A stretch of 64,000 bases of DNA, taken from assembly GCA_044892525.1 (NCBI GenBank), contig CM097885.1:27654001-27718000 (forward strand), written 5' to 3'. Shown here piece by piece: positions 35,131 to 36,135 of the stretch (position 1 is its first letter; each line of letters opens with the position of its first letter). The notes below the pieces were generated by a model, which was given only the letters and a program-made list of their open reading frames with translations, did not search any database and was not told where the DNA came from. The position numbers were made by a program, and so were the translations under genes. Source of the DNA: Schmidtea polychroa (Eukaryota).

Positions 35131-35202
35131 GCCATTATAGCGGAGTGGGAATAGGCTTCAATTTTATCACCGGGAGTCCGGGTTCAATTTTCGATTTTGG
35201 TC
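35131..35202 (+). ncRNA. tRNA-like Pol III cassette 1
   Basis: A box TAGCGGAGTGG at position 8, B-box-like GGTTCAATT, ~72 nt, followed by oligo-T; stems degenerate. Confidence 0.55.
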
Positions 35203-35364
35203 AATTTTTTTCGATATTTTTTTTTCAACGGAATCTGATTCAGCGTACTGATTTTAGTATATATTTAAATTTTCAGATGGATCTGAGTGGTAGTTGTCGA
35301 GAAAATGAATAATTAATTATTAATTTCATCAATAAATAGTCACACATTAACAACTTATTTTATA

Positions 35365-35437
35365 TTGAGTATAGCTTAGTGGTAATAGCACTCGACTGCA
35401 TTGCCAATACCAATGGGTTCAAATCCCATTTCGGTCA
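35365..35437 (+). ncRNA. tRNA-like Pol III cassette 2 (tRNA-Cys(GCA)-like 5' half)
   Basis: TATAGCTTAGTGGTAATAGCACTCGACTGCA resembles the tRNA-Cys 5' half; perfect T arm AATGGG-TTCAAAT-CCCATT; T-run terminator. Anticodon and acceptor stems do not pair well. Confidence 0.65.
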
Positions 35438-35603
35438 TTTTTTTTCAAATTTTTTTTTAAACAAAATATTGATCAGCATACTCGATTTAGTACTTGTACA
35501 AATTTTAAAGGTGATTGGTCAACGGCAACTCTTGGAAATTTAAGATCAAAAACGTTTTAACTTGAATCGATTATTTATAGTCTAAAAAATGACAAAAATT
35601 CAA

Positions 35604-35675
35604 ACCTTGATGGCGCCGTGGGCTAGACCGGCACAGTGGTTCAAATAGATAGCGGTTCAAATCCTAACTGTGGTT
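35604..35675 (+). ncRNA. tRNA-like Pol III cassette 3
   Basis: A box TGGCGCCGTGG at position 8, B box GGTTCAAATCC, followed by a T-run. Confidence 0.55.
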
Positions 35676-36135
35676 AGTTTTTTTTTCAACATAAAATAAT
35701 ATTAAAAATTTGAAAATAATAGTGTGGGTATCTTATATTTATAAAGTACTTGTATATTTTATTTTATTTATTTTATTTTATTTTATTTTTTTATTAATTA
35801 ATTATTTTTTAAACATAAATATGATGGTGGCGAACCGGTAATTATCGCCACCTGTCTTTCGAACACCCCCGGATCGATCCCGGTAATGTGCACATTTATT
35901 TCTTGGTTGTTTTCGGACCTCTTTCGGATTCGCTTTCGAATTCATTTGAACTTTCGAGCAGCACGCTTAAAACGCCGTTGAAATCGTATTCGAGCGAGAA
36001 GCGAATAATAAGGTGTGCTGCTATTATCGAATTGATTCTGATGTATGAGTCTGGCCAGCTTGTATATTGGAAGAGATTTGATAAACGAAAGAGGTTGATA
36101 AATAAAAAAAAATGATCCGGATCAAAAAAAACTGT

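Follow-up and report, generated by a model that had tools for sequence, protein, structure and literature searches.

Polintons are viewed as endogenous viral relatives of the adenoviruses, with which they share a protein-primed polymerase and a double jelly-roll capsid. The stretch of Schmidtea polychroa DNA analyzed here (64,000 nt, hereafter the window) carries a Polinton in which an initial annotation described three tandem tRNA-like cassettes beside the capsid gene and read them as possible analogues of adenovirus VA RNAs or as an insulator array. The locus raises the question of whether a Polinton encodes Pol III small RNAs of its own. The titles and abstract openings covered by our literature search, which is incomplete in coverage, describe no Pol III cassettes, VA-like non-coding RNA or capture of spacer sequence in Polintons; similar cases may be listed among the ncRNAs in tables S11-S12 of PMC12220804.

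The carrier element (21748..36580, ~14.8 kb) has AGTAGT...ACTACT ends, a 6-bp GTGATT target site duplication (TSD) and a right terminal inverted repeat (TIR) at 36221..36580, the matched arms being 21777-22108 and 36221-36552. Its gene set includes pPolB, an integrase that carries a fused PLA2-like domain and, on the minus strand at 33784..35076, the double jelly-roll major capsid protein (MCP; PF21738, E 3e-26); the ATPase match is weak (E 0.005) and spread over two ORFs in this copy. The element thus has the features by which Polintons/Mavericks are recognized, namely pPolB, an integrase, a double jelly-roll capsid, TIRs with AGT ends and a 6-bp TSD. In the host genome, which is 781 Mb and AT-rich, an MCP 28-mer common to all 50 loci compared has 2,022 exact copies, and the best 40 DNA matches of the window Polinton are 99-100% identical. 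Judging from these matches, the family is large and young, at about 2,000 copies.

Several further observations concern the element and its surroundings. In each TIR, the terminal 25-30 bp recur in inverted orientation ~200-300 bp inward (21748-22000; 36330-36580). Siblings with more than 90% identical MCP show several unrelated TIR types, and Polinton termini seem to be exchanged as modules. The window Polinton is inserted into a BEL/Pao-like gag region (DUF1759; 36576-37724), and further to the right follows an element of Gypsy type that encodes RT, RNase H and integrase (40826-45141). A second 14.8-kb element, at 3619-18428, is nearly all palindrome, with AGTAG...CTACT ends, an AGTGAT TSD and 5.5-kb arms that are 100% complementary. 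Within it a 960-aa pPolB and a 239-aa ORF occur as two identical, inverted copies; the element has no further ORF of at least 100 aa except one nested in pPolB, and looks like a non-autonomous fold-back Polinton-type element.

A strict scan for paired A and B boxes on both strands of the whole window returned exactly three matches, all in the gap between MCP and the TIR and at the places already annotated (35131, 35365 and 35604). Amongst 300 first-order Markov random versions of this gap (35080-36220), one had a single match and none had more. The A boxes lie at 35138, 35372 and 35611, with B boxes 43-44 nt downstream and then runs of T7, T8 and T9. Unit 1 (35131..35211, plus strand) has its B box at 35181, three internal T4 runs and the T7 run at 35205; unit 2 (35365..35445, plus strand) has its B box at 35416, a tRNA-Cys-like 5' half and the T8 run at 35438; and unit 3 (35604..35686, plus strand) has its B box at 35654, an extra internal GGTTCAAAT and the T9 run at 35678. 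The anatomy and the placement first described, upstream of and divergent from MCP and inside the TIR-bounded element, are therefore sound, except that the B box of unit 1 has two mismatches.

A second scan admitted the GATC form of the B box, for which the consensus is GWTCRANNC, and gave four matches in the window. The additional match, at 35828/35871 and again with 43-nt spacing, is a fourth unit that the original count of three had missed. All four units show the sequence features of Pol III type-2 genes, that is, tRNA-like A/B spacing of 43-44 nt and oligo-T downstream, the imperfect boxes being the B box of unit 1 and the A box of unit 4 (one mismatch).

ARAGORN identified no functional tRNA in units 1-3, and in Rfam searches of the same units only unit 2 scored, with 26.7 bits, under the tRNA (RF00005) cut-off of 29; such pseudo or low scores had been anticipated. 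Folding z-scores relative to shuffles were 0.16, -2.4 and 0.83 for units 1, 2 and 3, respectively, and units 1 and 3 fold no better than shuffles. Likeness to host tRNA extends beyond the boxes for unit 2 (tRNA-Cys, as annotated; reached by 4 of 1000 box-preserving shuffles) and for unit 1 (tRNA-Lys; 2 of 1000), with four host isotypes compared from a tRNA set that is incomplete: of 112,431 candidates in the Rfam tRNA search 63 were scored, and these gave no arrays other than those of Lys/Arg/Gln type. A tRNA-Trp ancestry of unit 3 was also considered and is weakly supported (39 of 1000 shuffles for one variant and 124 of 1000 for the window copy, four isotypes). Host tRNA genes occur in very long single-isotype tandem arrays with periods of 278-424 bp, and pattern searches of these gave 851 Trp-type and 1,009 Cys-type matches.

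The flanks of units 1 and 2, noted earlier as related, align together with the units at a score of 116, as compared to a maximum of 55 in 300 box-preserving shuffles (spacer copies). By this alignment units 1 and 2 are old duplicates, flanks included. Unit 3 could not be aligned to either of them beyond the boxes, and its shared descent with them does not rise above shuffles.

The origin of units 1 and 2 became apparent from their distribution in the host genome. The unit-2 pattern has 3,035 matches; the first three lie in one array without Polinton genes, and the variant of that array makes up 1,686 matches. Amongst the first 100 of these 1,686, the variant occurs in groups of 1-4 at 243-bp spacing, and the groups themselves return at intervals of about 13 kb, both close to chromosome ends and on small contigs. 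The repeat that holds it is the 18S-5.8S-28S rDNA unit, which shares with the window only positions 35088-35563, located ~3-4 kb upstream of 18S on the opposite strand. This block of ~470 bp (35088..35563, plus strand) contains units 1 and 2, is all-or-none among Polinton copies and matches a section of the host rDNA intergenic spacer at ~98% identity. Units 1 and 2 have the properties of rDNA spacer sub-repeats, as they lie between 28S and 18S, in tandem and in variable copy number. A further A/B unit 237 bp upstream in the spacer is missing from the Polinton block, and its common ancestry with units 1-2 is not above shuffles. The spacer as a whole holds four to five Pol III-type A/B units at ~240-bp spacing (host contig C115:22471-23454), in an array that points away from the rRNA genes and that has one member absent from the Polinton block.

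Subtracting the spacer copies leaves about 1,350 copies of unit 2 for Polintons, or some two thirds of the number found for MCP. Substitutions between the spacer and 22 Polinton blocks amount to 1.3-3.1% (distance 2.2%), and mean diversity is 1.7% for units 1-2 within Polintons and 8.2% for MCP among 22 block-lacking Polinton copies. When filled and empty sites were compared, the borders of the Polinton insertion proved to be where the spacer homology ends, and six bases of the empty site were found repeated in the filled one (two clear examples of empty sites). The block was most likely captured from the spacer recently by one Polinton lineage, as far as these alignments indicate. Box conservation in units 1-2 predates their residence in Polintons, and thus says little about a function there.

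Unit 3 is distributed differently. Its pattern has 3,246 matches in the host genome, and the reversed control has none. Of the first 30 matches, which include a few pairs from one and the same element, 26 lie within 1.5 kb of a Polinton gene (13 MCP, 12 the pPolB start, 1 other) and 29 are adjoined by unit 4. Its place beside MCP in 13 of the 30 and beside pPolB in 12 puts unit 3 at either Polinton end, pointing outward, and in the 30 sampled loci it was met only with Polinton ends. The idea that the units are limited to Polintons thus applies to unit 3 in these loci, but not to units 1 and 2, which have copies in the rDNA spacer. Additionally, unit-3 matches in the first 16 Mb of one host contig form many opposite-strand pairs ~13 kb apart, which places the module of units 3 and 4 often at both ends of one element; the pPolB beside the left ends of the paired elements is only ~50% identical to that of the window.

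Across 56 distinct contexts of unit 3, recurrent variation was found at none of the 12 fixed box positions as compared to 26 of the 64 others (p 0.004). The T arm and acceptor are not kept among copies. The A box has one mismatch in the window copy and none in its 29 closest siblings, and the second internal GGTTCAAAT is also nearly invariant. Conservation of the boxes without the T arm and acceptor would fit selection on TFIIIC binding or on transcription itself, and not on an RNA product.

Unit 4 occupies 35821..36201 on the plus strand, its start being set from the A box. From 5' to 3' it comprises the A box (35828), the GATC-type B box (35871), an internal T4 (35910), a multi-hairpin body, a 3' hairpin with an A-rich loop and a T4 at 36198. 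The pattern of this stretch has 2,533 matches in the host genome, and in 30 of 30 sampled loci unit 3 lies upstream. Of 34 distinct copies, 33 have the A and B boxes at a distance of 43-44 nt, with variation confined to degenerate positions; among 1000 random versions of the stretch, one contained a pair of this kind.

As plus-strand RNA, the stretch 35821-36207 (387 nt) has a folding z-score of -9.2. For the core (35822-36125) the values are -6.2 as plus-strand RNA, -1.5 as minus-strand RNA and -2.8 / -2.4 as DNA, and the strength of the first against the weakness of the others implies a predicted fold that depends on G.U pairs available on one strand. The predicted structure consists of a 5' hairpin, a long closing stem, a junction with two long hairpins, and the A-looped 3' hairpin followed by T4. 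Recurrent changes in the predicted stems keep pairing in 15 of 21 cases, as compared to 10 of 33 rare changes (Fisher p 0.005), where the structure was taken from one member and the related copies make the counts not independent events. The longest hairpin, of 25 pairs, has 99.9% of its cells paired, with eight one-sided changes, and in the 3' hairpin one pair is changed on both sides in 13 of 34 copies. Pairs changed on both sides number only three overall, a count reached by 120 of 500 shuffles. The other 6 of the 21 recurrent stem changes disrupt the predicted pairing, in some copies a hairpin is partly deleted, and the small helices are poorly kept among copies. Preservation of the plus-strand fold by recurrent variants is thus a prediction.

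The internal T4 (T5 in one copy) is present in essentially all copies of unit 4. In the two host tRNA arrays examined, Trp and Cys, only T4 runs directly follow the gene; T4 may therefore terminate transcription in this host, in which case the unit 4 RNA would be only ~90 nt. A TATA-like motif and an ATG lie upstream of the unit, and Rfam gave no match to it. A protein-coding reading was rejected on account of frame-breaking recurrent indels of 1, 2 and 17 nt, and a hammerhead ribozyme because its core is mismatched by eye and Rfam gave no match.

No RNA record was listed for 35080-36220, which speaks neither for nor against expression. Sequencing runs presumed to be RNA yielded contigs over unit 4 in three runs of organism A from two studies, two of these runs also covering unit 3, and one low-depth contig of 158 nt over unit 4 in a presumed-RNA run of organism B. 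Two of the contigs, from different runs of organism A, span 35825-35931 and 35884-36138; depth was uneven, and contig depth cannot rank the parts; one comparison run was flat in depth and three other runs yielded only short AT-rich pieces.

The module varies among Polinton copies. Twenty diverged copies chosen with a distant MCP query (91-98% MCP identity) were examined at the capsid end, where 11 carried 1-4 intact units, 2 had deleted units and 7 had none, so that the proposed presence in sibling Polintons is confirmed for the 11 and not for the 7. The module is thus dispensable at the capsid end. Amongst the first 30 unit-2 matches, 27 were linked to Polintons, and 19 of these 27 carry an 89-codon ORF between units 2 and 3; the even spacing of ~235 bp, although real in the window, is for unit 3 therefore partly accidental. 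The ORF (sibling locus L041:1832-2101) encodes a charged, probably coiled-coil protein with no Pfam match, and the window keeps only its last codons. One sub-lineage has other small ORFs upstream of MCP, co-directional with it, in place of the Pol III module, which marks this region as an exchangeable accessory slot. No good A+B pair was found in 32 distant metagenomic MCP relatives (24-52% identity), about a third of which have at least 1 kb of upstream sequence, and a collection of viral contigs gave no MCP match and no match to the unit-4 pattern. The Pol III module of this Polinton is seen in one genome only.

These results can be set beside known systems, each taken as far as the excerpts of the cited papers describe it. 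In murine gammaherpesvirus 68 (MHV68), the TMERs are tRNA-like Pol III units of type 2, clustered towards one end of the genome (PMC4337559, PMC8223928), and their transcripts combine a tRNA-like head, an alternative terminator and stem-loops (PMC4337559). Unit 4, predicted to run as head, T4, hairpins and T4, may resemble this arrangement in outline, whereas units 1-3 end at strong T runs without hairpins. Unlike in the TMERs described in these excerpts, the head of unit 4 forms no cloverleaf, its length is about twice that of TMER1 (positions 127-322), and the carrier belongs to another virus group.

Adenovirus VA RNA, according to the excerpted description, is ~160 nt long, has a terminal stem, an apical stem and a pseudoknotted central domain, and inhibits PKR, its wobble-rich stems engaging PKR, Dicer and exportin-5 (PMC6599070). 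In those terms only unit 4 is like VA RNAI/II, through its internal B-box promoter and predicted long wobble-rich stems; it differs in its ~380 nt, its separate 5' and 3' hairpins and its lack of an Rfam match, and units 1-3, at ~75 nt, are without any VA-type fold. By length, architecture and Rfam, none of units 1-4 belongs to the VA RNA family. The VA-like trait that unit 4 does appear to have, long wobble-rich duplexes kept by selection, is a prediction of moderate strength, the copies being related. PKR, the classic VA target, is vertebrate-specific to our knowledge.

Decayed or complete tRNA genes are also carried by other elements. In Polinton-like viruses and virophages, tRNA genes were found by Rfam and ARAGORN and read as translation aids, in the excerpted part of PMC12220804. 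The window shares with these the presence of tRNA-derived sequence on a Polinton-type element; its units, unlike those reported there, fail ARAGORN and Rfam and keep only the promoter boxes. The retroelements Helenus and TRIMp3 carry a decayed tRNA near their ends with conserved A and B boxes, unlikely to be a functional tRNA (PMC10886601, in excerpt). As a mobile element with a box-conserved tRNA relic near its ends the Polinton is comparable, although those described are non-autonomous LTR retrotransposons, while the present carrier is a DNA virus-like element with several units, including a long folded one.

Altogether, the three annotated units are real but do not form one system. Their description as element-specific VA-RNA analogues was not upheld, since units 1-2 also reside in the host rDNA spacer, units 1 and 3 fold no better than shuffles and 7 of the 20 diverged copies lack all units at the capsid end; the VA-like idea fits unit 4 better than units 1-3. 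Several other explanations deserve consideration. The boxes could matter as DNA, all four units forming a tDNA-like barrier or nucleosome-free array that would shield the inward promoters from silencing, with RNA as a by-product. DNA bound by TFIIIB/TFIIIC and tRNA genes act as barriers in the excerpts of PMC9540200, and the present units resemble these, as known here from sequence alone, in their box-only conservation and their position between a promoter and the element border. A barrier would suit the retention of boxes while the tRNA fold is lost, the variation in unit number from 0 to 4 among copies, and the flanking of both ends, back to back with MCP or pPolB. Planarian Polintons are targets of piRNA and H3K9me3 according to the excerpted PMC8532177, the carry-over to this host being a guess. 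What a barrier does not account for is a strand-specific, G.U-dependent fold kept by recurrent variants over ~300 nt downstream of the unit 4 boxes, and as an explanation of all four units we consider it rather unlikely; for units 1-3, an insulator role is conceivable. Less likely still is a reading in which units 1-3 are neutral passengers of a successful lineage and the unit 4 stretch belongs to a Pol II transcript or a replication hairpin region, its A/B match being a relic. Units 1-2 are too young in Polintons, given their low mean diversity, to show selection, the module is missing at the MCP end of 7 diverged copies, and the upstream TATA-like motif and ATG and the internal T4 runs of unit 4 would suit this reading. 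Against it stand the box-specific conservation of units 3 and 4 and the folding of the unit 4 stretch as DNA, which is weak and equal on both strands.

The transfer between Polinton and spacer might also have run the other way, with units 1-2 as an old Polinton module of which a piece became fixed in host rDNA. By eye, the D-loop and 3' motifs of units 1-3 look alike, and the upstream spacer unit cannot be aligned to unit 1 beyond the boxes, so one native spacer array is not proven. Yet the block in the rDNA unit has no other Polinton sequence beside it, the homology ends at the insertion borders together with the 6-bp repeat of the empty site, and the similarity of unit 1 to unit 3 is not above box-preserving shuffles (120 of 1000 reach it), all of which makes this direction very improbable. 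Finally, tRNA-derived A/B boxes are typical of SINE heads and A-rich stretches lie close to the 3' end of unit 4, which might suggest a host SINE inserted into the Polinton. In units 1-3, however, T7-T9 runs directly follow the head, units 3 and 4 occur at Polinton ends or paired together (first 30 matches of each), and outside Polintons the copies of unit 2 stand in tandem rDNA repeats and not at dispersed sites (first 100 of 1,686). From these samples (30 loci each and 100 listed places), none of units 1-4 has the character of a tRNA-derived SINE, an origin to which we assign hardly any probability. The annotation of the units as Pol III type-2 promoter cassettes that are neither tRNAs nor a dispersed SINE thus appears well founded.

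The reading towards which we lean, as a fairly probable one, is that unit 4 encodes a folded Pol III RNA of ~380 nt, that unit 3 is a box-only site of Pol III recruitment, and that units 1-2 are recent cargo from the spacer. TFIIIC would bind the boxes, and Pol III would transcribe outward toward the TIR. Unit 3 would yield a short unstructured by-product while recruiting the Pol III machinery beside unit 4, and this recruitment would also adjoin the divergent capsid or polymerase promoter. In unit 4, Pol III would read through the internal T4, and the long wobble-rich stems of the resulting RNA would engage host dsRNA factors, such as Dicer. Unit 4 is thereby a genuine VA/TMER-like candidate that may act as a viral decoy RNA or give rise to small RNAs; that its folded RNA serves as a decoy of the host dsRNA machinery is a tentative suggestion made by analogy. 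Tentative to the same degree, and at present doubtful, is the broader proposal that the Polinton, through unit 4, supplies itself with a VA/TMER-like Pol III RNA by which RNA silencing in the host is dampened, and builds up beside it a Pol III promoter array from cassettes taken out of the rDNA spacer.

Should that proposal hold, the VA/TMER-like RNA and the captured array would help to explain the expansion of the family to about 2,000 near-identical copies, and small-RNA counter-defence of the adenovirus type would have arisen independently in an endogenous relative of adenoviruses. A structured RNA gene of Pol III type in a still-expanding family is a concrete candidate for how such an element copes with RNA-based silencing. 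The link to rDNA means that a virus-like element and the host ribosomal spacer share promoter cassettes, and it brings to light, in the rDNA spacer of an animal, a series of Pol III-type boxes oriented away from the rRNA genes.
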